Below, in pieces: positions 5,200 through 49,690 of a stretch of 64,000 bases of DNA (positions are counted from its first letter, which is position 1; the number at the start of each line of letters is the position of its first letter). Both the position numbers and the translations under genes were made by a program. Location: assembly GCA_947630575.1 (NCBI GenBank), contig CANRIB010000004.1, forward strand, positions 3,027-67,026, in the 5' to 3' direction. This DNA comes from an uncultured Bacilli bacterium. GTDB taxonomy: Bacteria > Bacillota_I > Bacilli_A > RF39 > UBA660. Under the pieces are notes generated by a model. The model did no database searches and was not told the DNA's origin. It worked only from the letters and a program-made list of their open reading frames with translations.

Positions 5200-6150
5200 A
5201 TGGCCAAACAGAAAATAAAAAACTTTAAATTGGAACAGGAAGAGTTAAAACCTGTTACGATAGGGGTTTTTGAAAGTAGAAAAAAAAGTTCAGTTAGTAT
5301 ATTTATTATTTTGACAACTTTTATTGTATTAGTTTTATTTTTACCTCAGATATCAGATTTATATAATAAGTATTTTAATTCTGATGAAGTTGAAATTCCT
5401 GAAGGAGGAAAATTAGAACCAATTAAACCACCAAGCGATGATGAAGAAGATGAGGATTATCATGATACTTTCTATGATTATGCGATAGATTTAAAAATAG
5501 AAAGAGAAGATATTACAGTTGGAGATTTTGTGGTTGATACTGTAAATAATACTTTAGGTTTTAAAGTAACAAATAATTTGAGTACAAGTATAATTTTGAG
5601 TGATTTAGATTATTATTTGGAATTATATACGGAAGATCATACTTTATTAGAAAGACTTAAAATAACTGGTGATGCGATAGATGTAGGTGGCAGTAATAAT
5701 TATAAAAAACAATTGAGTACAGGAGTGGCTTTAGATTTTAAATCCTTTGTGTTAGTAAAGATAGATCAAAATGATTATCCTGCAGTTAATTTAACTTTGG
5801 ATGAAAATGGAAATAGTGCTTTAGTTTGTAGTAGACCTCATGAAACAGTAACATATAAATTTACAGATAATTTATTAAAAGAAGTTTCTAGTGAAATTGT
5901 TTATGCAGTTACAGATAATGATTATACAACTTATGCTTCACAGTATCGTAATCAAGCGACAACTTATAATGGTAGACCGGGTATTACTTCAACATTTTTA
6001 GATATTAATGGAGCTTTTACAGTTTCAACAGCAGTGGATTTAAGTAAAGCCGAAAGAATGACAATTTTTAATGCTGATACGTTTAGAACTGATACAGAAG
6101 CAAAAATAGTTAATTTTGAGATGGAGGCTCAAGGGTTTGATTGTGAGTAA
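5200..6150 (+). CDS. Membrane-anchored hypothetical protein with acidic linker
   Basis: 316 aa. One N-terminal TM helix, a DDEEDED linker and a beta-rich ectodomain. No recognisable family. Confidence 0.55.
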   Translation: MAKQKIKNFKLEQEELKPVTIGVFESRKKSSVSIFIILTTFIVLVLFLPQISDLYNKYFNSDEVEIPEGGKLEPIKPPSDDEEDEDYHDTFYDYAIDLKIEREDITVGDFVVDTVNNTLGFKVTNNLSTSIILSDLDYYLELYTEDHTLLERLKITGDAIDVGGSNNYKKQLSTGVALDFKSFVLVKIDQNDYPAVNLTLDENGNSALVCSRPHETVTYKFTDNLLKEVSSEIVYAVTDNDYTTYASQYRNQATTYNGRPGITSTFLDINGAFTVSTAVDLSKAERMTIFNADTFRTDTEAKIVNFEMEAQGFDCE

Positions 6151-6168
6151 CAACTTAAGATAAAGGAA

Positions 6169-6915
6169 GTGACTAAAATGGAATATAAATTTTGTATTAA
6201 TGATTTTGAGGGTCCATTAGACCTTCTTTTGCATTTAGTTAAAACTTCAAAAATGGATATTTATGATATAGATATAAAAGTTATTATTGATGAATATTTG
6301 GTTTTTATTGAAAATGAAAAGAATAAAAATATTGATATAGCAAGTTCATATTTGGTTATGGCTGCAGAATTAATACATTTGAAGAGTAAAATGTTAGTTA
6401 ATGATGATACAGTAGATGCCGGAGATGAAAGTGACGATTTTCATATTACTAGTGAAGAAGATTTAAAAAGAAAAATTATTGAATATGAAAAATATAAGAA
6501 AATATCAGAAACTTTAGAAGAACAAATGAATAAGAGAAATAATTTTTATACGAAAAGTCCTTCTAAATTAGAAGAAATTGTCGATAATTCGAAAGTTAAT
6601 TTGGGGGATGTTGATGCTCAGGATTTAGTGCAGGCATTAAAAAATATTATGGCAAGAGAGAAATATCAAAAGCCGCTTAATACCAAAATTACTAAAAAAG
6701 AATATAGTGTAGAAAAAAGAATTGGAGATATAAGAAAAATACTTACGGTTAGAGATAAAATTGAGTTTGGAGAGTTGTTTCCAGAACATGATAAAGATTT
6801 TTTGATTGTGACATTTTTATCGGTTTTAACTATGAGTAAAAATGAAGAAATTATTTTAACGCAGGAAGATAATTTTCGACCTATTATGGTAGAAAGGAGA
6901 ACTTTAAGTGAATAA
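6169..6915 (+). CDS. scpA: Segregation and condensation protein A
   Basis: N-terminal FEGPLDLLLHL motif and pairing with scpB. An alternative ATG lies at 6178. Confidence 0.9.
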   Translation: MTKMEYKFCINDFEGPLDLLLHLVKTSKMDIYDIDIKVIIDEYLVFIENEKNKNIDIASSYLVMAAELIHLKSKMLVNDDTVDAGDESDDFHITSEEDLKRKIIEYEKYKKISETLEEQMNKRNNFYTKSPSKLEEIVDNSKVNLGDVDAQDLVQALKNIMAREKYQKPLNTKITKKEYSVEKRIGDIRKILTVRDKIEFGELFPEHDKDFLIVTFLSVLTMSKNEEIILTQEDNFRPIMVERRTLSE

Positions 6916-7486
6916 ATTAGGAATATTAGAAGGAATACTTTTTGTGGTAGGAGATGAAGGTATTACTTTAAATAATTTATGTGAAGTTATGGCTATTACA
7001 ACTGAAGAAGCAAAAGACTTGTTATTAAAACTTAAAAGTAGTTATGAAGATAGTAATCGAGGGATAAGAATAAGTTATTTAGGGGATGCTTTTAAATTAA
7101 CTACTAAAGAAGAACATAAAGAATATTATCAAAAATTAATAGAGAATCCTGATGCTAATACTCTTAGTCCATCAACTTTAGAAGTGCTTGCGATAATCGC
7201 ATATAATCAACCAATTACAAGAGTAGAAATAGATGAGATGCGAGGGGTTCAAAGTGCATATATTGTTAGAAGATTAGTTGCTAAAGGACTTGTAAAAGAA
7301 GCAGGTAAATCAAAATTACCTGGAAGACCAAATATGTACCGAACTACAAGAGAATTTTTGGACTGTTTTGGCCTTGCAAGTTTAAATGAACTGCCAGAGT
7401 TTACTCCTGAAGTCGAAGAAAAAGAAGAAGAAACAGAATTATTTACATCTATTTATAAAGAGGAAGATAATGAATTGGGAGTTTAA
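6908..7486 (+). CDS. scpB: Segregation and condensation protein B
   Basis: ILEGILFVVGDEGITL..., LEVLAIIAYNQPITRVEI and PGRPNMYRTT motifs. Confidence 0.9.
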   Translation: MNKLGILEGILFVVGDEGITLNNLCEVMAITTEEAKDLLLKLKSSYEDSNRGIRISYLGDAFKLTTKEEHKEYYQKLIENPDANTLSPSTLEVLAIIAYNQPITRVEIDEMRGVQSAYIVRRLVAKGLVKEAGKSKLPGRPNMYRTTREFLDCFGLASLNELPEFTPEVEEKEEETELFTSIYKEEDNELGV

Positions 7487-12283: not shown

Positions 12284-12320
12284 AAGTAATGGGAAAATAA
12301 AAATCTCATTACTTTTTTAA
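12284..12320. terminator. Bidirectional terminator between convergent genes
   Basis: AAAAAGTAATGGG...CTCATTACTTTTT hairpin flanked by A and T runs. Confidence 0.55.
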
Positions 12321-12776
12321 TTGTTTAATATATTTAGGATTGTCAGTTCTTCCTAAGAGATAGTCGGCAGAAATATTATATTTTTTACATATAGTGTATA
12401 GAAAAGGGGTTGCAATAATGTTTTTTCCTTTTTCATATGCACATATTACAGTTTTATCTGAGTTAATAACACTTGCTAATTTACCTTGTGTTAGTTTTTG
12501 TTCTTTTCGAAATTCTTTTAATCTACTACCTGATGTAATTTTATTTAATTTTTGATTATTGAAATTATTACTTTTTTTATTTGTTAAATTCAAAATATAA
12601 TCTAATGAAACATTAAAATAGTTGCAAAAATTGTATAAATGTTTAATGGGTATAGTTGTGTCTTCCGTTTCATAATGACTATATGTTATTGAAGATATTC
12701 CTAAATAATTTGCTATATCTTTTTGCATTATTTTGTTTTCTATTCTAATTTCTTTCATTTTGTTACCATAGTTCAT
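12309..12776 (-). CDS. XRE-family regulator with two tandem HTH domains
   Basis: Two HTH_3-like units (IMQKDIANYLGISSITYSHYE... and LTQGKLASVINSDKTVICAYE...), each ending in a DY(I/L)L motif. Divergent from paralog A. Confidence 0.85.
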   Translation of the reverse strand: MNYGNKMKEIRIENKIMQKDIANYLGISSITYSHYETEDTTIPIKHLYNFCNYFNVSLDYILNLTNKKSNNFNNQKLNKITSGSRLKEFRKEQKLTQGKLASVINSDKTVICAYEKGKNIIATPFLYTICKKYNISADYLLGRTDNPKYIKQLKK

Positions 12777-12904: not shown

Positions 12905-12944
12905 TATGATTGATAATAAATCAATTATAAAGAAGGGAAGATTA

Positions 12945-14324
12945 ATGAAGGTAGAGAAGTTAAGTAAAGGAAAGAGTAAGAAAATTATATTAGCTATAAC
13001 AATAATAGTATTAGCAATAGGAATAATATATATAACAAATAGCAAAGCAAAATATCAAGTAACCAAAAGTGTGCAAATAGTTAATGGAGTAATAAATTAT
13101 TCTAGAGCAGATTTTAGTTTGTTAGGAGTGTATCAGCAACATGAAAAGAGTAGTAGTACTTATGATAGTGTAAATAATGTTCCTACGTCTGGTTATGTAT
13201 TAAATGAAAATAAAACATATTGTACAATAGGCTCAACAAAATATGAGGGAAAAACAAATTATAATAAACAAGGAATAACAATAAATTATGCTGGAGGTAG
13301 TGTAACATTTGGAGGAGTAAAAACTGCCAATACAAAATGTTATTTGTATTTTGATATTACTGATAATATTCCACCAGCAGAACGTGTTACTCAATTAGGT
13401 TTAACAGTAAGCCAATCGGGATGTCCAACTTATCCAACTCCGACAATAAGTTCAGCAGAAAGTTCTGCTACATTATTTTGTAAAGGTCAAGACGACGATG
13501 GAGATACATATTATTTTAGAGGGAAAGCAGATAAGAATTGGGTAAAGATAGGAAATACATATTGGCGAATCATCCGAATAAATGGAGATGGAACAATAAG
13601 ATTAATATATAATGGAACAAGTGCAGTCACGACAGGAGTATCAACTCAATATAAAACTGGAGCTTTTAATTCTATTTTTGGTGATAATGCCTACGTAGGA
13701 TTAAAATATACGATAGGTGTAAGAAATGGATTTAATACTCCATCAGATATGTTTAATACATTAAATACATTTTACAATGAGTATTTTGGAAGTGGTAAGT
13801 CTTTAGTATCATATGCAAATAAATTAGACTCAAGTGCGGGATTTTGTGGAGACAGAACTAGTAATACAGATTATTTAGCTCAAACAACAAATAATACAGG
13901 CGGAACTGGAGCAAACGAAACATACTATGGAGGTAGACTAAGATTACTTAATTCAAAGAAACCAACATTTAAATGTCCAGATAAAACTAATGATTTGTAT
14001 ACAAAAACAGGAGCAACACAAGGAAATAAGTCATTAACCAATTCAATAGGTTTAATGACAGTGGATGAAGCAATGTATGCCGGAGGTTTTGGAGGACAAA
14101 ATAACGATGGTTATTGGTTATATACAAATCAAAGCTATTGGCTTATGTCTCCGTCTGGCTTTGGTGGTGGTGCTGCTAACATGTGCGTTTTGTATTCGGA
14201 TGGTACTCTCGGCAACTATAGTGTTAGCCTTGCGCATGGTGTGCGACCTGTAATAAATTTAAAATCAAATACTATATTTACAGGAAATGGAACTACGAGT
14301 AGTCCATTTGTAGTGCAATTATAA
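12945..14324 (+). CDS. Membrane-anchored surface protein, paralog A of a 3-member family (C-terminal lectin-like YW..SP...GVRPV domain)
   Basis: Start chosen by homology to the paralog C N-terminus (MKVEKLSKG.. vs MEFKKLERN..; shared AKYQVTKS(V/A)QIVNGVINY). Shared motifs: YYFRG, YWRIIRINGDGTIRLIY, AGFCGDR, FKC, GLMTVDEAMYAGG, YWLMSP, GVRPVINLK. Confidence 0.8.
   Translation: MKVEKLSKGKSKKIILAITIIVLAIGIIYITNSKAKYQVTKSVQIVNGVINYSRADFSLLGVYQQHEKSSSTYDSVNNVPTSGYVLNENKTYCTIGSTKYEGKTNYNKQGITINYAGGSVTFGGVKTANTKCYLYFDITDNIPPAERVTQLGLTVSQSGCPTYPTPTISSAESSATLFCKGQDDDGDTYYFRGKADKNWVKIGNTYWRIIRINGDGTIRLIYNGTSAVTTGVSTQYKTGAFNSIFGDNAYVGLKYTIGVRNGFNTPSDMFNTLNTFYNEYFGSGKSLVSYANKLDSSAGFCGDRTSNTDYLAQTTNNTGGTGANETYYGGRLRLLNSKKPTFKCPDKTNDLYTKTGATQGNKSLTNSIGLMTVDEAMYAGGFGGQNNDGYWLYTNQSYWLMSPSGFGGGAANMCVLYSDGTLGNYSVSLAHGVRPVINLKSNTIFTGNGTTSSPFVVQL
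14136..14252 (+). other. G+C-rich variable-region-like block in paralog A
   Basis: Local G+C is far above the flanks. Occupies the same position (YW.MSP to GVRPV) as the blocks in paralogs B and C. Confidence 0.45.
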
Positions 14325-29254: not shown

Positions 29255-29515
29255 TTAATTATTATTCTTAACTGGTTTATTATAAGAAATAATATCTGTT
29301 AAATCGCAATTTAAAACATAACATAATTTAGCAAGAACATCTCCATCATATCTAGCAATATTACCAGTTATATATCTTTCTAGGACTATATGATGCAAAC
29401 CAGTTCTTTTAGCAAGTTGGGTTTTAGTTAAGTTTCTTTCTTGCATTATTTTTTTAATACTACACGTGACTGTTCCATAATTTACATAAGTTATTATACT
29501 TTCTTGATTATTCAT
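29255..29515 (-). CDS. XRE-family HTH regulator
   Basis: 86 aa (LTKTQLAKRTGLHHIVLERY...LCYVLNCDLTDII). Divergent from paralog B. Confidence 0.8.
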   Translation of the reverse strand: MNNQESIITYVNYGTVTCSIKKIMQERNLTKTQLAKRTGLHHIVLERYITGNIARYDGDVLAKLCYVLNCDLTDIISYNKPVKNNN

Positions 29516-29650
29516 GATATCCTCCTAAATATATCTTAACAAAAATTACGTATATAGAAGAGACGTTTATATATTCGGTACAGAAATGCAAAAAAAGTAT
29601 ATACAATTAAAAAAAATTAAGTTATAATGTATAAAAATAGGAGTGATTAT

Positions 29651-31849
29651 ATGACTAAAGAAACTAAAAGATTATTTATTGTTGAAGGAATTATTTTGCT
29701 GATTGTTTTAACTATTGGTATTGGTTATGCTTTTTTATCAACAAGTGGTAAACAAGAATTAGCCAATACTTTTACAGCAGGTTGTTTAAGTATAACAATA
29801 GAAGAAGAGGGAAGAGCAATAGATTTAGAAAATGCTTATCCCATAACAGATATAGAAGGATTAGAACAAGATGGATATACTTTTAAAATAAAGAATAATT
29901 GTAGTAATGATACAAATTATCAAATTAATTTAGAATCATTAAGTAATCCAACAGCAGATACAACATTAAAAGCCGATTATGTAAGAGTATCCCTTTCAAG
30001 TGATACAATGGATAATTTAATAACAACATTAAAAGAAAATGATGTAGCAACATATCATTCAGAAAATGCTTATGTATCTTATAATCTTTATAGTGGAATA
30101 TTAAAAGGAAGTGCAAGTAAATCATTTACTTTAAAAGAATGGGTAGAATATAATACAACCAAAGAAGAAGGAGCAAGTAAAGAATATAAATCACAGATAA
30201 ATGTAGTAAGTGATACAAGAGTAGAAGTAACACCAAAACCAGAGATAACATTTGCTTATAGTGGAAATACGATAAAAGGAACAATAGCAGGTAGTGCAAC
30301 AGATATAACATATTGTGAAACAAAAGATAATAGATGTGAACCAAAACAAAATGGAGAAATACAAGAACAAACAACCTCAATAACATTAAATGAAGAATCA
30401 AAAACAAAAGAAGTAACAACCAAATTAGGAGTATTAAATGTATATCAAGATTATAAAAGAATGATATGTGCAAAATTGGATAATGGAAAGACAATATGCA
30501 GTAATCCAGATACAGGAAGTGGGACACCAGATTTTAGCATTAATAGTGATTACGCTGATAATGATTTCAAAGTATGTACATATAAGGGAATTAGTGTTAA
30601 CACAGGATATGCTCCAGAAGAAATGTGCCAGTTAGTTTTTGAAATAACTAGAAATGGTAGTTATTATTATCAAGATGGTTTAATGGAATATGAACTTAGA
30701 ATAAGTTCTGATTCTAAGCGTGTAGGTTTAGCTATTTGGGATGAAGAAAAACAAATATGTACTTACAATGGAAATGAAATCAAAACTTGGGGTGAACAAA
30801 GGATTAACCAAGAAAATTGCTTGTTTGCTTATGAACAAAATGGTAAATATATTACTTTTAATCTAATAGATGAAATGAAAGAGACTTATAATGCAGATAA
30901 TATAAATTTTTTAGGAGCGGGTACTTTAAGTACTGCTGTTGGAAAAACCGGAATATATGAAACAAAAGATGAAGAAGGAACAAGTTATTATTATAGAGGA
31001 GCAGTAGAAAATAATTATGTAGAGTTTGCAGGATTTTATTGGCGAATAATTAGGATAAATGGAAATGGTTCCATACGTTTAATTTATAGTGGAAAAAAAG
31101 ATGAAGTAAATGAAATAGGTAAAGAAACAATATTAAAAAATGGATATAAGGATACAAATGGTTATAAAATGATAACATTAAAAGATGAAAGAAAATATGG
31201 TACCTATAATGGAGATGTTAACGATAATGCCTATGTAGGATATATGTATGGAACACCTGGTTCAAATAATTATACTGATGCTCATGAAAATATAAATGAA
31301 AGTAATGTTAAGAAAGAATTAGATAATTGGTATATAGCAAATTTAAAACAAGTAGAAGATAAATTAGATACACAAGCCGGCTTTTGTAATGATAGAAGTT
31401 TAGCAGAAGGATATGAAAATGTTGGATATGGAACGAAAGAAACATATTATGGAGCATCGGATAGAATAAAAAATAAATATCAGCCAACCTTAAAATGCGT
31501 TAATAAAGATAATGATTATTTCACATGGAAGGGACATGCCAATACTGGTAATAAAGTATTAACCAATCCGATAGGATTAATCACAGCCGATGAAGCAATG
31601 TATGCTGGAGCGAATACTGTTCCGAATGATACTTATTATTTATATACAGGTCAGAATTATTGGACAATGTCTCCGTATGACTTTAACGGCAGCTATGCTG
31701 GCGTGTTCTGTGTGAGTTCGTTTGGCTACCTCGGCTACTACTACGTGGACAGCACGAACATCGGTGTGCGCCCAGTAGTAAATGTGGACCCTAATAAAGT
31801 AAGTATTTCTGGAACTGGTACTATAGATAATCCTTATCTTTTCTCTTAA
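29651..31849 (+). CDS. Surface protein paralog B: SipW-type signal peptide/TasA-like N-region plus the family core and C-terminal lectin-like domain
   Basis: Start MTKETKRL with a TAGGAG RBS (ORF track starts at 29627). GYAFLSTSGKQELANTFTAGCLSI resembles the SipW-cognate signal class. Core motifs: YYYRG, FYWRIIRINGNGSIRLIY, AGFCNDR, LKC, GLITADEAMYAG, YWTMSP, GVRPVVNV. Confidence 0.8.
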   Translation: MTKETKRLFIVEGIILLIVLTIGIGYAFLSTSGKQELANTFTAGCLSITIEEEGRAIDLENAYPITDIEGLEQDGYTFKIKNNCSNDTNYQINLESLSNPTADTTLKADYVRVSLSSDTMDNLITTLKENDVATYHSENAYVSYNLYSGILKGSASKSFTLKEWVEYNTTKEEGASKEYKSQINVVSDTRVEVTPKPEITFAYSGNTIKGTIAGSATDITYCETKDNRCEPKQNGEIQEQTTSITLNEESKTKEVTTKLGVLNVYQDYKRMICAKLDNGKTICSNPDTGSGTPDFSINSDYADNDFKVCTYKGISVNTGYAPEEMCQLVFEITRNGSYYYQDGLMEYELRISSDSKRVGLAIWDEEKQICTYNGNEIKTWGEQRINQENCLFAYEQNGKYITFNLIDEMKETYNADNINFLGAGTLSTAVGKTGIYETKDEEGTSYYYRGAVENNYVEFAGFYWRIIRINGNGSIRLIYSGKKDEVNEIGKETILKNGYKDTNGYKMITLKDERKYGTYNGDVNDNAYVGYMYGTPGSNNYTDAHENINESNVKKELDNWYIANLKQVEDKLDTQAGFCNDRSLAEGYENVGYGTKETYYGASDRIKNKYQPTLKCVNKDNDYFTWKGHANTGNKVLTNPIGLITADEAMYAGANTVPNDTYYLYTGQNYWTMSPYDFNGSYAGVFCVSSFGYLGYYYVDSTNIGVRPVVNVDPNKVSISGTGTIDNPYLFS
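31658..31777 (+). other. G+C-rich variable-region-like block in paralog B
   Basis: About 52% G+C by hand count in an otherwise AT-rich gene. Scaffold nucleotides are identical to the block in paralog C. Differences are concentrated in NNC/NNT codons. Confidence 0.55.
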
Positions 31850-34563: not shown

Positions 34564-34959
34564 ATGGATTATTTAAAAACTTTATATTTGTTTGTAGGAT
34601 TAATGCTGGTGGTTTTTTTAGTAGATTATTATTTAATTAATAAAAGAAAATTAAAATTAATTAATAATAAAGGTAAAAATAAAAAGGGAAAGAATAAGAA
34701 AGTTAAACCGATTGGGGAATTAGATTATTTAATTATTAAGTTTAAATTAAAAGAAAAGAAATTAAATAAAGAGAGAGTAATATTTTGGATTGCCATTATA
34801 AATAGTTTTATTATCGCGTTTGTTTCAAGTATAATTATGTTACTGGATATTCCGATGGTATTTCAATTGTTAGTGGCATTCGTGTTGTTATTTAGTTTAA
34901 TTTATTCTTTATATGAAATTTATGGAAGATATTTAAGAAAATTGGAGGAGAAAAAATAA
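34564..34959 (+). CDS. Small membrane protein between the T-box and leuS
   Basis: 131 aa with an AGGAGG RBS, 3 predicted TM helices and a Lys-rich loop. Its stop overlaps the leuS ATG (TAATG). Confidence 0.6.
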   Translation: MDYLKTLYLFVGLMLVVFLVDYYLINKRKLKLINNKGKNKKGKNKKVKPIGELDYLIIKFKLKEKKLNKERVIFWIAIINSFIIAFVSSIIMLLDIPMVFQLLVAFVLLFSLIYSLYEIYGRYLRKLEEKK

Positions 34960-37778
34960 TGAATACAAAAGAGATAGAAAAGAAATGGCAAAAAATATGG
35001 GCTGATAACCATTATTTTGAAGCTAAAAATGGGGGAGATAAAGAAAAATATTATATATTAGTAGAATTTCCTTATCCGAGTGGTTCGGGTTTACATGTAG
35101 GTCATGTTAGAAGTTATTCCGCTTTAGATGCAATGGCAAGGATGAAGAGGCTACAAGGGTATAATGTATTATTTCCAATGGGATGGGATGCTTTTGGGGC
35201 ACCAGCAGAACAATATGCGATTAAAAATCATATATATCCCGCAGATGCTGTAAAAGAAAATATTAAGACTTTTAAGGGACAAATTGAGGCTTTAGGGATG
35301 TCTTTTGATTGGTCAAGAGAGTTTGCGACGACTGACCCAGAGTATTATAAATGGACTCAATGGCAATTTTTACAATTTGTAAAAAAAGGGATGGCTTATA
35401 AAGCTGAAAAAGAAATAAATTGGTGTCCTAATTGTAAAACTGGGCTTTCTAATGAAGATGCCGCCGGAGGAGTTTGTGAGAGATGTGGGGCTGTTGTAAC
35501 TAAAAAATTAAAATCACAATGGATACTTCGGATGAGTGATTATGCGGATAGATTGCTTGATGGACTTAAAGATACTGAATTTGAAGAGAAAATTAAAACC
35601 GCTCAAATAAATTGGATAGGTAAAAGTATTGGTGCAGAAGTTGACTTTAAACTTAAAGATACAGAAGATGTTTTAAAAGTATTTACAACTAGATGTGATA
35701 CTTTGTTTGGAGTAACATTTATGGTTATGTCACCAGAACATCCTATTTTGGCTAAATATCAGGATAGAATTAAAAATATAGAAGAAGTTAGAAAATATCA
35801 AGAGGAAGCAAAACAAAAAAGTGAAATTGAAAGAACAGATGCAACAAAAGATAAAACAGGAGTTAAATTAGATGGTTTAACTGCGATTAATCCTGTAAAT
35901 GATGAAGAAATACCGATATATATAAGTGATTATGTTTTGGCTTCTTATGGAACAGGGGCAATTATGGCTGTTCCGGCTCATGATGAGAGAGATTATGCTT
36001 TTGCTAAAAAATTTAATATTCCTATTATTCAAGTTTTGGAAGAAACAACTGGAACTCCTCATGAAAATGAAAGTAAGAAAAATTCGATTGTGGCTATTCT
36101 TTATGATGAAGAAAGTGATAAATATTTAACAATAAATTGGCATGAATTAGGGGGACGTTTATTTATTGGGGGAACAATTAAAGAAAATGAAACTCCTTAC
36201 GAGTGTGCTTTAAGAGAAATAAAAGAAGAAACTGGTTATCAAAATGTAGAATTAGTGGAAGTTCTTCCAAGGATAAACCATCATTACTATGCTTTTAATA
36301 AAGATAAATATTTTAATATTGATTCAACAGGATTTTTGTTTAAATTAAAAAATAAAGAACAAACTAAACAAGAACTTGATACAGATGAAGTATTTGATTT
36401 AGAGTGGGTAGATAAAGAGGTAATTAGTGCTGAGGTAAAAGACGAATTACATAGTAAAACCTTTTTATACGCATGTAATGCAGGAGCAATGATTGGTGAT
36501 GGCATACATATTAATTCGGAATTCTTAAATGGCTTAAATAAAGAAGATGCAATAAAGAGGATGCTAGAGTTTTTAGAAGAGAAAAAAGTTGGTAAAAAAA
36601 CGACTAATTATCGCTTACAAGATTGGATATTTTCAAGACAAAGATTCTGGGGTGAACCTATTCCAATGATTTATTGTGAAGATTGTGGATGGGTGCCTGT
36701 ACCAGAAGAAGAACTTCCAGTTTTATTACCTAAAGTTGCGCATTATGAACCTACTGATACAGGAGAATCACCTCTTGCTAATATTCCAGATTGGGTTAAT
36801 ACTCCTTGTCCAAAGTGTGGAAAAATGGCTAAAAGAGAAACTGATACAATGCCTAACTGGGCAGGGTCTAGTTGGTACTGGCTCCGCTATATGGATCCTC
36901 ATAATGATAAAGAATTTGTGGGACAAGATGCGCTTAAATATTGGGGAATGGTAGATTATTATAATGGTGGTATGGAACATGCGACAAGACATTTACTTTA
37001 TGCAAGATTTTGGCATCAATTCCTATATGATCAAGGATTAGTACCAACACCAGAACCATTTAAGAAGAGAGTAGCGCATGGGATGATTTTAGCTGAGGAT
37101 GGAACTAAAATAAGTAAATCTAAAGGTAATGGAATTAATCCTGTTGATGTTGTTAATAAATATGGGGCAGATACTTTAAGATTATTTGAAATGTTTATGG
37201 GAGATTATGAGAAAGATATTCCATGGAGTAATGAAGGTCTTAAAGGATGCAAGAGATTCTTAGATAGAGTAATTAAACTTAAAGAAAAGATTAATGATAA
37301 AGAAGAATATTCAAAAGATTTAGAAAATATTATTCATAAAACTATAAAAAAAGTAACTAATGATTTAGCAACGATGAAATATAATACGGCTGTATCTAGT
37401 TTAATGATTTTAGCAAATAAATATGAAGATAAAGATGTTATTACAAAGAAAGATTATCAAATATTGCTTATTTTATTAAATCCAATTGCGCCACATATTA
37501 CAGAAGAATTAAATGAAGAAATTGGATATACTACCCATATCGCGGCAATGGATTGGCCAAAGTATGATGAGGAGAAAACTATTGATAATGAAGTTACTAT
37601 TGGAGTACAAGTTAATGGTAAGCTTAGAGGAGAAATTACAATTGCAACAGATGAAGAGGAAGAAGATATTAAGGCTAAAGCTTTAGCTAATGAAAATGTT
37701 AAAAAGCATATAGATGGTAAAGAAATAGTTAAAGTAATTATTATTAAAGGAAAGATTGTTAATATTGTAGTAAAGTAA
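34959..37778 (+). CDS. leuS: Leucine--tRNA ligase with an inserted Nudix domain
   Basis: HIGH (HVGH), editing-domain TTRCDT, AVPAHDERD, KMSKS (KISKS). 939 aa, against about 800-860 typical for bacteria. Confidence 0.95.
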   Translation: MNTKEIEKKWQKIWADNHYFEAKNGGDKEKYYILVEFPYPSGSGLHVGHVRSYSALDAMARMKRLQGYNVLFPMGWDAFGAPAEQYAIKNHIYPADAVKENIKTFKGQIEALGMSFDWSREFATTDPEYYKWTQWQFLQFVKKGMAYKAEKEINWCPNCKTGLSNEDAAGGVCERCGAVVTKKLKSQWILRMSDYADRLLDGLKDTEFEEKIKTAQINWIGKSIGAEVDFKLKDTEDVLKVFTTRCDTLFGVTFMVMSPEHPILAKYQDRIKNIEEVRKYQEEAKQKSEIERTDATKDKTGVKLDGLTAINPVNDEEIPIYISDYVLASYGTGAIMAVPAHDERDYAFAKKFNIPIIQVLEETTGTPHENESKKNSIVAILYDEESDKYLTINWHELGGRLFIGGTIKENETPYECALREIKEETGYQNVELVEVLPRINHHYYAFNKDKYFNIDSTGFLFKLKNKEQTKQELDTDEVFDLEWVDKEVISAEVKDELHSKTFLYACNAGAMIGDGIHINSEFLNGLNKEDAIKRMLEFLEEKKVGKKTTNYRLQDWIFSRQRFWGEPIPMIYCEDCGWVPVPEEELPVLLPKVAHYEPTDTGESPLANIPDWVNTPCPKCGKMAKRETDTMPNWAGSSWYWLRYMDPHNDKEFVGQDALKYWGMVDYYNGGMEHATRHLLYARFWHQFLYDQGLVPTPEPFKKRVAHGMILAEDGTKISKSKGNGINPVDVVNKYGADTLRLFEMFMGDYEKDIPWSNEGLKGCKRFLDRVIKLKEKINDKEEYSKDLENIIHKTIKKVTNDLATMKYNTAVSSLMILANKYEDKDVITKKDYQILLILLNPIAPHITEELNEEIGYTTHIAAMDWPKYDEEKTIDNEVTIGVQVNGKLRGEITIATDEEEEDIKAKALANENVKKHIDGKEIVKVIIIKGKIVNIVVK
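36040..36492 (+). other. Nudix hydrolase domain inserted within LeuRS
   Basis: Exact Nudix box Gx5Ex7REUxEExGU, read as G-TIKEN-E-TPYECAL-REIKEETGY. Flanked by the LeuRS segments FNIPIIQV and GDGIHINSEFLNGL, which are nearly contiguous in B. subtilis LeuS. Confidence 0.8.
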
Positions 37779-41544: not shown

Positions 41545-44500
41545 TTGAAAAAAATAACAGATTTTTTAATTGATTATAGAAAAATTATTTTGGTAATTAT
41601 GATTTTAATTACGGGTATGTGTTTGTTTTTGTCTAGTAAAGTTGATGTAAATAGGGATATTACTAAATATTTAGATAAGAATAGTGAAACAAGAATAGGT
41701 ATGGATATTATGGATAAAGAATTTGGTGATAATGTTACAAGTTCTTTAAATGTGATGTTTCTTGATTTGAATAAAGAAGAAAAAGAGAAAATATATCAAG
41801 AATTAGAAGATATTAGTGAAGATATAGAAGTTAGTTATGAAAATAATGAATATTATAATATTGATAATTATACTTTGTATAAAATTAAAGTTAATGATGA
41901 TAAAGATTCTAAATTAGCTAAGAGTATATATGACAAAATAAATGATAGTTATAAAAATTATAAAATATATATGTCGGGAGATATTTATGAAGAGTTTAAA
42001 ACTATATTGCCAGTATGGATAGTTTTTTTGGCTATATTTTTGGCTTTAATTATTTTAATTATTATGTGTGATTCATATATAGAGCCTATATTATTTTTGA
42101 TAGCTATAGGTATGGCGGTTGTGATAAATAAAGGAACAAATATAATGTTTGATTCTATTTCTAGTATTACTAATGCTATATGTGCAATATTACAACTTGC
42201 TCTTTCAATGGATTATTCTATTATGCTTATTAATCGTTATAGACAAGAAAAAGAAAATGAAAAAGATGATGTTAAAGCTATGAAGAAAGCTTTATATTCG
42301 TCATTTAAATCAATTTCTAGTAGTTCTGTTACAACAATTGTGGGTTTAATTGCTTTGGTGTTTATGTCTTTTACAATTGGTAGAGATTTAGGGTTAGTGC
42401 TTGCTAAAGGAGTGTTATTTAGTTTAGTTACAATTTTTACTTGTTTACCAGCGTTAATTTTGATGTTTGATAAATTAATAAATAAAACTAAAAAGAAAAG
42501 TCCAACTTTTAAATTAGATTTTTTAGGGAAGTTTGCTTATAAGTTTAGATATGCTGGAATTATTTTATTTGTTATTGTTTTAGTGGGTTGTTATCTTTTT
42601 AAAGGTAATTTAGGTATTTTATATACAGATAAGGGAGAAGATAAGATTGCAGATGTTTTTGGTGAGAATAATGAGATAGCACTTATTTATAATAATAAAA
42701 ATGAAGATAAAGTGGCTAGTTTTTGTAAAGATTTGAATAATAAAAAAATTGATGAAGTATTGTGTTATGGAAATACTATTAATGAAAAGTTAAATTATAA
42801 AGATTTAAAAAGTAAATTAAAAGATTTAGGTTCGGATGTCCAGATTGATGATTATCTTTTAAAGATTGTGTATTATAAATATTATGAGGGAGAAAATAAT
42901 ACACTTACTTTAAATGAATTACTTAATTTTATACCAGAGTATGTGTATACTAATGATAAAATGGATGAACAAATATCTAATAGTATGAAAAGTAATATTA
43001 AGAAGTTAGAGAATTTTGCAAGTGTTAATGCCATAAATAAAAAGCATAATAAAAAAGAGATAGCAAATATTTTAAGTATTAAAGAAAATGATGTAAATGA
43101 TTTGCTTATATTTTACGATTCTTTACATAATTCTAATAAATTGACTTTAAGAGAATTTTTGGATTTTATGCTTAGTTATGTGGTTGATAGTGAATATGGG
43201 AAAGAGCTTGATAGTAAAGCAATTGAAAATATTAATTTGATAAATAAATTTGCTAATAAAGATGTAATAGAAAAGGAATTATTAGATAAAGAGATGGCTA
43301 GTTTTTTAGGTATAAATGAAAGTGATGTTAGTAATTTATATTTATATTATCTTAGTTTAAATATTAATAAATATAAGATGACTTTAAGTAATTATGTGGA
43401 TTTTATGGTTTTACTTAGTAAAGATACTAATTATGCTAGTTTAATTGATGAGAATTTATTAAATCAAATTAAAATATTACAGACATTTAGTAATTTAGAG
43501 TTTATAAATAAAGGTATTACTTATCAAGAGATGGCTAATATTTTAGGTATGAGTGAAGAATTAGTTAAAAATGTTTATCAGATAAATAAAGGGGATTTAG
43601 AGATTCAAGAGTATTTATTAACACCTTATGAATTTATTAGTAGTATCATTAATAATGAAGATATTAACAAAAGTTTAGATGCAGAAACAAGTAAAAAATT
43701 AAGTACATTAAAGATGACTATGGATAGTGCTCTTAATAATAAATTTTATGATTATTTAGAGATGGCAAGTATTATGGGTATTAGTAAAGAAACTGTAAAT
43801 AATATTTATATATTATATTTTAAAGATAGTTTAAGTCTTAGTCCCAAAGTATTTGTAGATTTTATATTAGAGCATCAAAATGATGATAGTTTAAAAGATA
43901 TACAAAGAGATAGTTTAAATAATTTAGTTTTTGCTGATAGTATTATGGATAGTGTTATAAATAATACTAAGTATGATACACTGGAATTAAGTAAATTACT
44001 TAATATGGAAGAAAATAAAATAAAACTATTATATGGGGTATATGATGTTAATTATTTAAAGAAAGATATATTAATTTCTTATAAAGATTTTGTTTATTTT
44101 TTAATAAATGATGTAATACCAAATAAAGATTATGGAAGTAGTTTTGATAAAGAGAAAATTAATAAAATAAATACTCTTAAGAAAATTATAGATAATACAA
44201 GTAAGAATATAAAATATGATAAAGATAGTTTATATAATATACTTTCTAAATTATCAGGAGATTTAGATAAAAATTTAATTGATTTGTTATATATCTATTA
44301 TGGTAGTGTGCATAATTATAATCAAGAATATGTTTTAACTATTGATGAATTTGTGGGTTATCTTAATAAAGATATAATTAAAGATAAAAGATTTGATGAT
44401 TTTATTGATGATGATATGAGAGAAGAGATAATTTCGGCAAAAGATATGGTTAGTGATGCTTATAAAAATTTAGTGGGAGAAGAATATTCAAGATTAGTGT

Positions 44501-45132
44501 TAGATACTAAATTTAATTTAGAAGATAAAGAAGTATTTCAGTTTATGGAGTCTTTGCAAAAGAATTTAAATATTGATGATTCTTATTTAATTGGAAATTC
44601 ACCGATGGCTTTAGAAATGAGTAAAACTTTTCAAAATGAGTTAAATTTAATAACAATACTTACAATTATATTTATATTTGTGGTTGTTTTAGTAACATTT
44701 AAATCAGTATTAATACCAACTATATTAGTTTTATTAATTCAAACAGCAGTTTATCTTACAATGGGAATATTATTTGTTCAGGGAGGAACAGTTTATTTCA
44801 TTTCTCTTTTAATCGTGCAAAGTATTTTAATGGGGGCTACAATTGATTATGCGATACTTTATACTTCGTATTATTTAGAAGCTAGAAATAGAGAAGATGT
44901 TAAAAATGCCTTAATTAAGGCTTATAATAATTCTATTCATACGATTCTTACTAGTTCTTCTATTTTGGTGTTAGTTACTTTGGTGGTAGGTTATTTTGCC
45001 TCAGCAGTAACAGCCCAGATATGTATAACTATTTCTGAGGGAACTTTATGTTCTAGTTTACTTATTCTTCTTTTGTTACCAGAAATGCTTGCAAGTTTAG
45101 ATAAATTTTTAGTGAGAAGAAAGAAAGTATAG
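41545..45132 (+). CDS. MMPL/RND-superfamily membrane transporter with a long repeat-containing extracytoplasmic linker
   Basis: 1195 aa. Two multi-TM MMPL-type bundles (about aa 150-300 and 1010-1180) flank a roughly 500-aa soluble region. Confidence 0.78.
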   Translation: MKKITDFLIDYRKIILVIMILITGMCLFLSSKVDVNRDITKYLDKNSETRIGMDIMDKEFGDNVTSSLNVMFLDLNKEEKEKIYQELEDISEDIEVSYENNEYYNIDNYTLYKIKVNDDKDSKLAKSIYDKINDSYKNYKIYMSGDIYEEFKTILPVWIVFLAIFLALIILIIMCDSYIEPILFLIAIGMAVVINKGTNIMFDSISSITNAICAILQLALSMDYSIMLINRYRQEKENEKDDVKAMKKALYSSFKSISSSSVTTIVGLIALVFMSFTIGRDLGLVLAKGVLFSLVTIFTCLPALILMFDKLINKTKKKSPTFKLDFLGKFAYKFRYAGIILFVIVLVGCYLFKGNLGILYTDKGEDKIADVFGENNEIALIYNNKNEDKVASFCKDLNNKKIDEVLCYGNTINEKLNYKDLKSKLKDLGSDVQIDDYLLKIVYYKYYEGENNTLTLNELLNFIPEYVYTNDKMDEQISNSMKSNIKKLENFASVNAINKKHNKKEIANILSIKENDVNDLLIFYDSLHNSNKLTLREFLDFMLSYVVDSEYGKELDSKAIENINLINKFANKDVIEKELLDKEMASFLGINESDVSNLYLYYLSLNINKYKMTLSNYVDFMVLLSKDTNYASLIDENLLNQIKILQTFSNLEFINKGITYQEMANILGMSEELVKNVYQINKGDLEIQEYLLTPYEFISSIINNEDINKSLDAETSKKLSTLKMTMDSALNNKFYDYLEMASIMGISKETVNNIYILYFKDSLSLSPKVFVDFILEHQNDDSLKDIQRDSLNNLVFADSIMDSVINNTKYDTLELSKLLNMEENKIKLLYGVYDVNYLKKDILISYKDFVYFLINDVIPNKDYGSSFDKEKINKINTLKKIIDNTSKNIKYDKDSLYNILSKLSGDLDKNLIDLLYIYYGSVHNYNQEYVLTIDEFVGYLNKDIIKDKRFDDFIDDDMREEIISAKDMVSDAYKNLVGEEYSRLVLDTKFNLEDKEVFQFMESLQKNLNIDDSYLIGNSPMALEMSKTFQNELNLITILTIIFIFVVVLVTFKSVLIPTILVLLIQTAVYLTMGILFVQGGTVYFISLLIVQSILMGATIDYAILYTSYYLEARNREDVKNALIKAYNNSIHTILTSSSILVLVTLVVGYFASAVTAQICITISEGTLCSSLLILLLLPEMLASLDKFLVRRKKV
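42900..44400 (+). repeat. Six tandem, diverged repeats of about 75 aa inside the MMPL protein
   Basis: Recurring pattern LT(L/P)xEF(L/V)xF...(E)(M/I)A..LG(I/M)(S/N)E..V..LY..Y, seen six times in the translation. Confidence 0.6.
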
Positions 45133-45158
45133 ATTTTTAGTTAATCTATATTTTTTTA
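45129..45158 (+). terminator. Intrinsic terminator after the MMPL gene
   Basis: TATAGAT...ATCTATA hairpin plus TTTTTTT. Confidence 0.6.
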
Positions 45159-45248
45159 GTTAAATAAAAATGTGTGTTTTGAGCTTTAATTCTTTAAAAT
45201 TAATTGTTATAATATTTTTTAGTAAGATATATATGGAAGTGAATTATA

Positions 45249-47424: not shown

Positions 47425-48831
47425 TTAGCTTGGTACAAATGGACTTCCTGATTTTCCATTTCCTGTAAATGTTGTATCAGCCTTCAGATTTATTACTGGG
47501 CGCACACCATACGCGCTGTTCTCGCTGCCGAAAGTGAGGTTGCCATTCAAATTCACATAGAACACGTAAGCATAAGTGCCGCTAAACTTATACGGAGACA
47601 TTGTCCAATAGGCAGAATTTGTATATAAGTAATATGATTGATTATTGCTTCCTCCAAAGCCTCCTGCATATACTACTTCATCAGCTGTTATTAATCCTAC
47701 TGGATATGTTAAACTTTGTGTTCCTTTTTCTGCTTTTCCATATGTAAATAAATCCTCTTTATTTGTACATGTGAATATTGGGGCTTGTGGATTTTGCCAA
47801 CTTCCACCTTTATAGAATCTTATATAAGGAGCATAATATGTTGTTGTCGTTCCTGTTCCTCCCCCTGTAGTAGTTCCTGTATTATTTGTATATGATGTTC
47901 TATCTGCACAAAATCCTGCATTATTATCTATTTTACCATTTCCATTTGACCATTCGTCTAGTAGATTCGTTTTAAACCACTCATTTGCTCTATCTGCTGC
48001 ATAACTGTTTGTACCTTTTCCATGTACATTACTATCTGCATATTGATATCCTACATATTTATTATCATTAAATTTACCATCTGAAGTCGCATAATAAAAT
48101 GTATTTGCAGATCCAACTGTTATTTGAGTGCCTGTTCCTGTTGTTCCTGGTGGAGTAGTAGAATTCAATGTAGTTGTTCCTGCATATATTAATCTTATCG
48201 TTCCATCACCATTTATTCGGATGATTCTCCACCATATACTTTTATTATCACTTGTTGTTCCATATCTTACCCAATTATCATCTACTTTTCCTCTAAAATA
48301 ATATGTTGTTCCATTATCATCTGTTCCACTATACATGATTGAATTACCATTGCTATCTTTATGTTCTGAAGTATCTGTACTTGAAAAACTTGTTTGGCCT
48401 TGCTGTGGATTTCTGCTATTTACTAATTCAGTAATTGTTATTGGTTTTATTTTAAAATATAAAGTACATTTATCTCTTTTCTTTAGCTTACTAAATGTAT
48501 GATTACCACCTATTGTTTTTAATACTGCTCCTGTATCTTCGTGTGTATCGTCTATCATACATTTACTTTGGCTTTCGTCTATTTCATAACCAGTAGTTGG
48601 TACTTTATCTGTTATTTCATATCCTCCAGTATCATTTTCTTTTTGAATTTCAACTATCATAAAATCATATGGTTTATAGTTTATTACACCATTGACTATT
48701 TGAGCACTTTTGGTTACTTGATATTTGGCTCTTGACCTTAATGATACTACTGTTGTTATTATTGCTATTAATACAACTAAAACTAATAATACTTTTTTAG
48801 TATTATTTCGCTCTAACTTCTTAAATTCCAT
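47425..48831 (-). CDS. Membrane-anchored surface protein, paralog C (C-terminal lectin-like domain)
   Basis: 468 aa. N-terminus and leader are homologous to paralog A. Motifs: YYFRG, WWRIIRINGDGTIRLIY, AGFCADR, FTC, GLITADEVVYAGG, YWTMSP, GVRPVINLK. Confidence 0.8.
   Translation of the reverse strand: MEFKKLERNNTKKVLLVLVVLIAIITTVVSLRSRAKYQVTKSAQIVNGVINYKPYDFMIVEIQKENDTGGYEITDKVPTTGYEIDESQSKCMIDDTHEDTGAVLKTIGGNHTFSKLKKRDKCTLYFKIKPITITELVNSRNPQQGQTSFSSTDTSEHKDSNGNSIMYSGTDDNGTTYYFRGKVDDNWVRYGTTSDNKSIWWRIIRINGDGTIRLIYAGTTTLNSTTPPGTTGTGTQITVGSANTFYYATSDGKFNDNKYVGYQYADSNVHGKGTNSYAADRANEWFKTNLLDEWSNGNGKIDNNAGFCADRTSYTNNTGTTTGGGTGTTTTYYAPYIRFYKGGSWQNPQAPIFTCTNKEDLFTYGKAEKGTQSLTYPVGLITADEVVYAGGFGGSNNQSYYLYTNSAYWTMSPYKFSGTYAYVFYVNLNGNLTFGSENSAYGVRPVINLKADTTFTGNGKSGSPFVPS
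47494..47610 (-). other. G+C-rich variable-region-like block in paralog C
   Basis: About 47% G+C by hand count. The first 21 nt and last 15 nt are identical to block B. Internal differences are mostly at codon positions 1-2. Confidence 0.55.
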
Positions 48832-49339: not shown

Positions 49340-49426
49340 TAACATAAATATAGAACACCTGAATAGGTGTTCTATCCAAATAAACTTGGACTGAGGACAT
49401 CATAAGTGCCTCTTTTTGTTTGTCCT
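49340..49426 (-). ncRNA. Candidate antisense sRNA 1 (about 85 nt)
   Basis: Minus-strand promoter TTGCAT-18-TATAAT (49433-49462). Three predicted hairpins; the last is ATAGAACACC...GGTGTTCTAT followed by a U-rich tail. Confidence 0.35.
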
Positions 49427-49456
49427 GTATATATTATATACTAAAATATAGATAAA

Positions 49457-49513
49457 ATGCAAGTGTTTATTTTAATTTTGGTATTAGTTGTTAGTTTTAG
49501 ATTGATAAAATAA
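49457..49513 (+). CDS. 18-aa hydrophobic peptide MQVFILILVLVVSFRLIK (second copy)
   Basis: Aligns without gaps over 12 residues to the first peptide with conservative changes (I/V, L/V, R/K). No clear RBS, so possibly leaderless. Confidence 0.3.
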   Translation: MQVFILILVLVVSFRLIK

Positions 49514-49589
49514 TAGAACACCTGAATGGGTGTTCTATCCAAACACATTTGGACTTAAGACACCATAAGTGCTTCTTTTTTTATGTCCT
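49503..49589 (-). ncRNA. Candidate antisense sRNA 2
   Basis: Second copy of the repeat, about 85% identical, with minus-strand promoter TTGCAT-17-TATAAT (49596-49624). Confidence 0.3.
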
Positions 49590-49690
49590 ATATATATTAT
49601 ATACATAAAATATTAAAAATGCAAATAATTTTGGTTATTAAAAGTTTATTATGTGTTATAATAGAAATGGATATTAGAGGAGGTATATAA

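Follow-up and report, generated by a model that had tools for sequence, protein, structure and literature searches.

The 117-nt block at 47494-47610 (minus strand) of a 64,000-nt stretch of genome from an uncultured Bacilli bacterium of the RF39 lineage (contig CANRIB010000004.1, positions 3,027 to 67,026; hereafter the window) is probably a variable region (VR) of the kind found in diversity-generating retroelements (DGRs). It appears to be served in trans by a small, self-contained RNA gene that carries a template repeat (TR), here called a TR-RNA, of a 27-nt length class. This block, C, has two relatives in the window, blocks B and A, and each of the three lies in its own gene. Judged by the sequence features that define the mechanism, the system is a DGR, and its membership is incomplete because no reverse transcriptase (RT) was found and no diversification was seen. 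The elements on which the argument turns are the following.

47494..47610, minus strand: block C, the 3' end of gene C, 117 nt, encoding YWTMSP...GVRPV (the VR with its conserved edges).
47497..47598, minus strand: the stretch of C homologous to TRs, TCTCCG...GCGCCCA, 102 nt, which a cDNA would be expected to overwrite; its limits come from the VR/TR pair of locus L013 and from alignments of C with the TR of locus L020 and with TR2-TR5.
47497..47508, minus strand: the G+C-rich 3' boundary GGTGTGCGCCCA, common to VRs and TRs, at the position of an initiation of mutagenic homing (IMH)-like element; TR homology ends here.
31658..31777, plus strand: block B, the sister VR in gene B, 120 nt, one codon longer (30-nt class).
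14140..14252, plus strand: block A, a decayed VR of C length in gene A, with many more scaffold changes.

Read from 47610 to 47494 on the minus strand, block C is YWTMSPYKFSGTYAYVFYVNLNGNLTFGSENSAYGVRPV. It starts TAT TGG ACA ATG TCT CCG, ends GGT GTG CGC CCA GTA, and runs in frame near the 3' end of the open reading frame (ORF) 47425-48831(-). The first-pass annotation had described a VR-like block of about 47% G+C with the architecture of B on the opposite strand, and both the block and its coordinates held exactly. Its G+C content is 47.0%, compared with 31% in the remainder of gene C and 26.7% in the window, and 91 of 117 positions are identical to B with one 3-nt gap. This gap accounts for the codon by which C was said to be shorter (ACG AAC ATC GGT in B, GCG TAT GGT in C). 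The 26 differences between the two blocks lie mostly at the first and second codon positions (10, 12 and 4 at positions 1, 2 and 3, hence 22/26 at positions 1-2). The flanks of B and C are far less similar: the 150 nt upstream are 62% identical, the 72 nt downstream 52%. The description of the two blocks as sharing all scaffold nucleotides is largely right but somewhat overstated: the adenine-derived type does not cover four differences at third positions, nor TCG/TTG and GTG/GAG.

The 15-mer GGTGTGCGCCCAGTA, proposed to sit where an IMH-like element would be expected, has exactly two exact copies in the window, those of B and C, and a third copy with 2 mismatches lies in paralog A (14238-14252). 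At up to 3 mismatches there are 3 matches in the window compared with 0.05 expected from shuffles. Its placement is borne out by the templates described below: TR/VR homology stops inside the 15-mer, after GGTGTGCGCCCA, from where VRs run on as GTAATAAAT and TRs as ATATCCTTTT (ATATCC). A G+C-rich element of IMH type thus stands at the 3' end of the VR with immediate TR/VR divergence. Block C has kept this boundary and the sequence downstream intact, with no difference from well-preserved VRs elsewhere.

Templates were found in related genomes. The invariant core shared by B and C (GTGTTCTNTGTGANTTNGNNTGGCNNCCTC), used to scan species-representative genomes, matched at 37 loci (numbered here with the prefix L, as are all further loci), nearly all of them in uncultured gut metagenome-assembled genomes (MAGs) of the 'Bacilli/Tenericutes/Mycoplasma sp. 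CAG:776' type. The matches are of two kinds. VR-type matches are coding, with YWTMSP before and GGTGTGCGCCCA-GTAATAAATCTGAAAGCTGAT after, while TR-type matches are non-coding and AAC-rich, with GGTTAATCTA before and GGTGTGCGCCCA-ATATCCTTTTAAACT...TTTGGTTAAGGCTAAAT...GCATTAGGATACAAGATTAATC after. A profile search placed 76 TR-type elements in the 37 genome loci, and 78 metagenome loci added 13 more. A profile of the template element also matches block C itself (nhmmer, 47611-47494, E 1.2e-26). Each element measures 252-291 nt (about 270 nt) and is laid out as a promoter-like -10 box, the 5' leader GGTTAATCT, an AAC-rich TR of 105-140 nt and a 3' scaffold. A -10-like box stands just upstream in 73 of 86 elements, and a T-run follows the last hairpin in 72 of 86; both are soft signals in A+T-rich DNA. 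Some TR-RNA genes stand alone and others form tandem arrays with as many as 15 members, including the following.

L031:451-4971: 15 TR-RNA genes.
L036:1172-4612: 11 TR-RNA genes.
L035:2-2615: 9 or more TR-RNA genes.

The adenine-specific pattern is clearest at L013, where a VR (1664-1782) is accompanied by a TR-RNA 370 nt downstream (TR at 2149-2421). All 17 of the 17 mismatches between them fall at TR adenines, and 0 of 74 non-A positions are changed. Similarly, block B differs from the TR of L020, a rabbit-gut MAG, at 16 TR adenines and at no other position before the indel. At the family level, VRs were compared with a consensus of 76 TRs, which provides 28 adenine columns and 51 scaffold columns. 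Block C differs from it at 11/28 adenine columns and 3/51 scaffold columns (p=4e-4), so that the VR-like nature first proposed for C is upheld statistically against the TR family. The corresponding values are 15/28 and 1/51 for B, and 18/28 and 9/51 for the decayed block A. Of the three scaffold deviations of C, TTG and ACT also occur in some TRs, which leaves GTG->GAG as the unusual one, at a column that is T in 74/75 TRs.

Templates and targets also share their length classes. Measured across all loci, the segment between ..CCTC and GGTGTGCGCC falls into three lengths: 27 nt (43 TRs, 25 VRs), 30 nt (29 TRs, 7 VRs) and 33 nt (one TR, one VR). The one-codon dimorphism between B and C is therefore a family-wide property of templates and targets alike.

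For the strain itself, four ENA assemblies (ERZ27249329, ERZ27249603, ERZ27249337, ERZ27249118) and Logan runs ERR10663750-53 contain contigs 99.8-100% identical to the window. Other contigs from these samples, with the same 4.6-5.1x coverage and the same G+C content, carry the genes for the closest homologs of protein C (P0001, P0012, P0005 and P0007). From samples, coverage, G+C content and paralogy, these genes appear to be paralogs D-G of the window's genome, gene D being 77% identical to gene C at the DNA level. Five TR-RNAs lie on these contigs, in modules of the form [TR-RNA(s)][tandem helix-turn-helix (HTH) gene][target].

L138: TR1 and TR2.
L139: TR3.
L140: TR4 and TR5.

Two closely related template repeats had been suggested as one possible source of the indel. 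The idea is supported and in fact understates the case, as there are many templates: on the contigs assigned to the strain, TR1 has the length of B and TR2-TR5 have the length of C. TR1 ends GTG AAC AAC ACG AAC ATC GGTGTGCGCCCA and B ends GTG GAC AGC ACG AAC ATC GGTGTGCGCCCA, with the same length, the same extra codons and two A-to-G changes. Over 74 nt, B and TR1 show 14 A and 3 non-A mismatches, no gap and an identical AAC ATC. TR2-TR5 align to C without gaps over 72-108 nt; TR2, for example, ends ACG TAT GGT where C has GCG TAT GGT. The odd bases of C are each found in one own-strain TR (GGCACT in TR4, AATTTG in TR3, CTCACT in TR5), and its TAT codon is also found in one. Positions explained by none of the five TRs number 2/105 in C (AAG and GAG), 0 in B and 4-14 in A, D, E, F and G (14 in A).

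The TR-RNAs share a conserved scaffold. In an alignment of 71 elements (A1), the 5' leader pairs with AGATTAAYC about 60 nt downstream of the TR (P1, 10 bp), a hairpin directly follows the TR (P2, TATCCT/AGGATA), a short stem-loop precedes an A-rich run (P3), and a long terminal hairpin carries a T-run (P4). Paired cells make up 95.7% compared with about 42% when partners are slid, compensatory changes occur in 30 of 35 pairs, and 0 of 500 shuffles reach the observed values. In DGR RNA, a 'cPRT Stop' duplex joins sequence upstream and downstream of the TR and is followed by a stem-loop and adenosines, with another stem-loop just after the TR; this architecture has been reported from the Bordetella phage, and 207 further DGRs are predicted to have it (bioRxiv 10.1101/2023.10.23.563531). 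P1, P2 and P3 correspond to this published layout, which therefore points to cis-primed reverse transcription by a DGR-type RT.

Together, these observations suggest how block C may be written. Template function would be carried by many self-contained TR-RNA genes of about 270 nt, and not by one TR beside an RT. An unlinked DGR-type RT would copy the TR-RNA by cis-priming, misincorporating opposite adenines, and the cDNA would replace the homologous VR stretch. Block B, of the 30-nt class, would take a TR1-like RNA with AAC ATC as its template, and block C, of the 27-nt class, one resembling TR2-TR5. Since the TR-RNAs come in several length classes, so would the VRs, which would explain the codon by which B and C differ.

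Several points weigh against this reading. No DGR-type RT lies in the window or in the approximately 1.3 Mb around TR-RNAs and targets, and no DGR-clade RT stands next to any of the roughly 90 TR-RNAs. DGR RTs have been reported in 'Tenericutes' genome bins (Roux 2021 supplement). Avd was not noticed in the window, in the 1.3 Mb or beside TR-RNAs, and no search aimed at Avd or HRDC was made. The hairpin or cruciform that the first-pass annotation had suggested looking for downstream of each VR did not appear: DNA folds of the 73 nt after 7 VRs gave z values of -1.2 to +0.9 and no conserved stem. The assignment of L138-L143 to the window's genome follows from shared samples, coverage, G+C content and paralogy, not physical linkage. 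Moreover, no sampled TR fits C free of non-A mismatches, the best being TR3 (5 in 72) and TR2 (7 in 78). Formally, C and B could each be pieced together from the five own-strain TRs, at the price of 6-7 switches (6 for C), so that an unsampled cognate TR is more likely and, for C, the simplest reading. Finally, every same-strain assembly (4-5 ENA samples and the Logan runs) has the same VRs A, B, C and F, with no sign of current diversification; the power of this comparison is low, as the assemblies are near-clonal (99.8-100% identical) and only about 5x deep.

This last observation also favours the view that C is a relic, once written by a DGR and no longer its substrate, whose likeness to B reflects shared ancestry and past retrohoming and which now drifts by point mutation. 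The 5-10 non-A mismatches of C to each sampled own-strain TR would fit such a history, as would the AAG and GAG positions that occur in no TR, the latter at the column with T in nearly all TRs. Decay does occur in the family, as the clearly decayed paralogs A, D, E, F and G attest. However, the scaffold of C is conserved at 48 of 51 columns, TRs contain two of its three deviant variants, and its 3' boundary and downstream sequence match those of well-preserved VRs. The TR inventory is also far from complete, the five TRs coming from three small contigs where relatives have 16 or more. On balance, we regard a relic as unlikely.

A different question is which enzyme would act on the TR-RNAs. The only RTs in the 1.3 Mb are a retron-type RT (L071, L075) and one group II intron RT (L087), and the former is found at the following positions.

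L075:15849-16790 (same in L071): retron-type RT in the order parA-parB-mscS-abgT-RT-ychF.
L137:6173-7111 (JAMPHW010000025.1): retron-type RT in the same order.

This RT is classed by PADLOC as RT_Ec107-like (E 5.7e-118), matches Ec86 in the PDB (E 5e-33) and has its own a1/a2 non-coding RNA (ncRNA) upstream. It is syntenic in two species that bear TR-RNAs, at 61% identity, the ortholog being that of MAG GCA_023663235.1, which has TR-RNAs at L003, L024 and L027. The L075 copy has no typical effector gene beside it, which is unusual for a defence retron. It was considered as a DGR polymerase for the TR-RNAs nearby and set aside as a retron-type enzyme with its own ncRNA. That this syntenically conserved enzyme is the polymerase of the system, working on TR-RNAs whose leader/3' pairing recalls retron a1/a2 repeats, would accord with its being one of only two kinds of RT in the 1.3 Mb, with the conserved location of its ortholog and with the missing effector. 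Yet homologs of this RT, which is already supplied with a retron-like ncRNA, are widespread in Firmicutes that do not have the TR-RNA system, and the TR-RNA scaffold matches DGR cis-priming architecture, so that this proposal is very improbable. To our knowledge, adenine mutagenesis is known for DGR RTs only, which counts against it further.

The remaining alternative, in which no retroelement is involved and gene conversion among paralogs with positive selection on contact residues yields the codon-position 1-2 pattern, can draw on the many paralogs with patchy similarity and on the lack of a DGR-type RT in the examined loci, but is hardly credible given that the variable positions coincide with adenines of non-coding RNA genes that look separately transcribed and have a covarying, DGR-like scaffold, that selection would not put AAC in non-coding copies at exactly the variable codons, and that raised G+C content with an adenine-poor scaffold is typical of DGR VRs.

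Returning to C as a VR served in trans, the proteins that bear these VRs resemble known DGR targets. The three genes of the window are as follows.

47425..48831, minus strand: gene C, 468 aa, with an N-terminal helix (residues 11-36), a beta-rich body and a C-terminal DUF6273-like domain bearing the VR.
29627-31849, plus strand: gene B, 740 aa, carrying block B.
12906-14324, plus strand: gene A, 472 aa, carrying block A.

Pfam PF19789 (DUF6273) matches gene C at E 2.8e-4 (21.2 bits) and gene A at 17.8 bits, both below the cut-off of 23.5, and the Pfam scan gave no PF19789 match in protein B. In relatives, the L020 paralog reaches 23.8 bits and several homologs carry precomputed PF19789. Protein C has more than 6000 homologs; the protein database holds no exact record of it, and the best homolog is only 66% identical. 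Its AlphaFold2 model (predicted local distance difference test score 87.3) shows the N-terminal helix and the beta-rich body. In BFVD, Foldseek matched this model to several DUF6273 proteins of phages (E 2e-5 to 1e-3, probability 0.95-1.0), and a search of the PDB with the full-length model found nothing significant. The predicted VR-bearing domain thus resembles DUF6273 and the DGR targets with a C-type-lectin fold. Published work calls DUF6273 C-type-lectin-like (PMC10743442) and documents it as a target domain of DGRs; in targets of Faecalibacterium prophages, the VR maps to its C-terminus (PMC11792537). Block C would encode the ligand-binding tip, at the C-terminus, of a surface protein that is membrane-anchored and DUF6273/C-type-lectin-like.

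The window is otherwise ordinary low-G+C bacterial chromosome, with genes for leucyl-tRNA synthetase, FeoB, GH31, MMPL, SpoVA and the Tad pilus. It contains no TR, either in the 15-mer search or with the TR-RNA profile (nhmmer --max), and no RT motif. Two regulator genes stand next to targets.

12309..12776, minus strand: tandem-HTH regulator gene, by Pfam labels, divergent from gene A.
29255..29515, minus strand: short HTH gene of 86 aa (HTH_3/HTH_26, mapped from L047:4692-4952), divergent from gene B.

The same [HTH(-)][target(+)] order is seen again at D, E, F and G, there with adjoining TR-RNA genes. A divergent HTH gene, often a tandem HTH_3, is found immediately upstream of A, B, D, E, F and G, but not of C; outside the window these genes lie at L138:5024-5485, L139:374-655, L140:3419-3871 and L143:723-1163. 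This arrangement suggests paralog-specific regulation.

Upstream of gene C, two intergenic 97-nt direct repeats (49350-49446 and 49513-49609) are 87% identical and 163 nt apart; each begins with a hairpin (ATAGAACACCTGAATAGGTGTTCTAT) and neither has an Rfam match. The TR-RNA leader motif GTTAATCTA occurs at 45130-45165, between genes and upstream of HTH/thioredoxin-like genes beside gene C, with no TR-RNA after it, and may be chance or a remnant. At L020, a TR-RNA is followed by DsbD/thioredoxin genes and, farther along that strand, by a DUF6273 target gene. Elsewhere in the window, an MMPL-family membrane protein gene (ORF 41545-45132) contains four tandem repeats of about 234 nt (43052-43809) with weak sigma-70 region-4-like matches, and the leucyl-tRNA synthetase at 34959-37778 has a NUDIX hydrolase domain inserted after the editing domain (residues ~378-491). 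Same-strain short-read assemblies repeatedly break at 14318 (the 3' end of gene A), at 30150 (inside gene B) and at about 62390, which is consistent with repeated paralog sequence confusing assembly.

Among the TR-RNA genes of relatives, the L031 and L035 arrays abut the S10 ribosomal-protein operon. YhcG/DUF1016 PD-(D/E)XK nuclease genes stand 8-120 nt from a TR-RNA in 15 of 19 occurrences, in several genomes and often as TR-RNA/nuclease/TR-RNA. Examples are L034:4713-5633 and 6033-6953, L075:7877-8689 and L135:2925-3839, with others at L012, L018, L023, L025, L026, L037, L062, L114 and L124; none of these nucleases is in the window. The nuclease may be a functional partner or a co-duplicating module. 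At L135:3868-4069 (protein P0130), a chimera joins a TR-RNA promoter and leader, an unmutated AAC-rich TR, a VR-type coding tail (GVRPVINL...) and a terminator. It may be the product of recombination or retro-integration between a TR-RNA and a target gene.

Searches beyond these genomes returned little. The TR-RNA has no Rfam family, and a metagenome scan for TRs compatible with B or C gave 0 matches. A protein database search for the TR pseudo-ORF (MSPYNFN...GVRPISF) found only 10 matches, none of them C-like, one of which led to the L135 chimera. In IMG/VR, the scaffold pattern gave only two chance matches and the protein query none, and neither blastn nor tblastn found a match among GenBank phages. 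By these comparisons, the system does not appear to be phage-borne. In the literature, no paper linking DGRs with RF39 and no description of stand-alone TR genes or arrays was found.

Compared with the canonical DGR of Bordetella phage BPP-1 (mtd VR/TR/avd/brt), the system shares adenine-specific differences from TR to VR, an AAC-codon design, a VR at the C-terminus of a lectin-like ligand-binding domain and a G+C-rich element that ends homology. Its RNA likewise has a duplex flanking the TR, then a short stem-loop and adenosines (cPRT Stop; bioRxiv 10.1101/2023.10.23.563531). Unlike in BPP-1, however, the TRs are independent genes of about 270 nt and differing lengths, at least 5 in the strain and up to 15 in tandem in relatives. 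Neither brt nor avd homologs were seen near any TR or target, and no cruciform follows the VR. Cellular DGRs of the remote-target type (Treponema denticola, 'Lineage 4'; Wu et al. 2018, PMC5758913) are similarly chromosomal, with several target genes spread far from the core. Those systems use a single TR, next to the RT, for many VRs; in this lineage it is the templates that have multiplied, either scattered or in arrays. The most that surveys mention is 'two or more TRs', for 53 DGRs (PMC11661182).

DUF6273 proteins also serve as DGR targets in phages (Faecalibacterium prophages, PMC11792537; tentaclins, PMC10743442). They share the domain family with protein C, whose model has BFVD matches among phage proteins with DUF6273. 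The phage targets are tail or receptor-binding proteins with classical cassettes, in contrast to the chromosomal family of membrane-anchored proteins here. Retron ncRNA (msr-msd, a1/a2) resembles the TR-RNA in being a self-contained small RNA gene whose paired ends enclose a template. The TR-RNA template, however, is AAC-rich, derived from protein-coding sequence and homologous to genomic targets, and its scaffold fits DGR cis-priming rather than msr/msd.

A broader hypothesis can be put forward, tentatively and as rather doubtful in its full form. It holds that this is a 'distributed' DGR, in which a TR-RNA multigene family of varied lengths and an unlinked RT acting in trans would rewrite lectin-like paralogs in both length and sequence. 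The YhcG/DUF1016 nuclease would then be a dedicated partner, perhaps as the long-sought factor for cDNA integration at the target or as a multiplier of the TR-RNA module.

Descriptions of DGRs, and the pipelines that detect them, usually assume one RT and a single template next to it. The templates found here are independent structured RNA genes, multi-copy, of several lengths and unlinked to an RT, so RT-anchored searches would miss them. If functional, such an arrangement gives one enzyme a library of templates and explains length-polymorphic VRs such as those of B and C. The recurrent nuclease neighbour is a concrete candidate for the unknown DGR step in which cDNA replaces the VR. For the window itself, the result places A, B and C in a family of at least seven hypervariable surface-protein paralogs of an uncultured, RF39-like gut bacterium.

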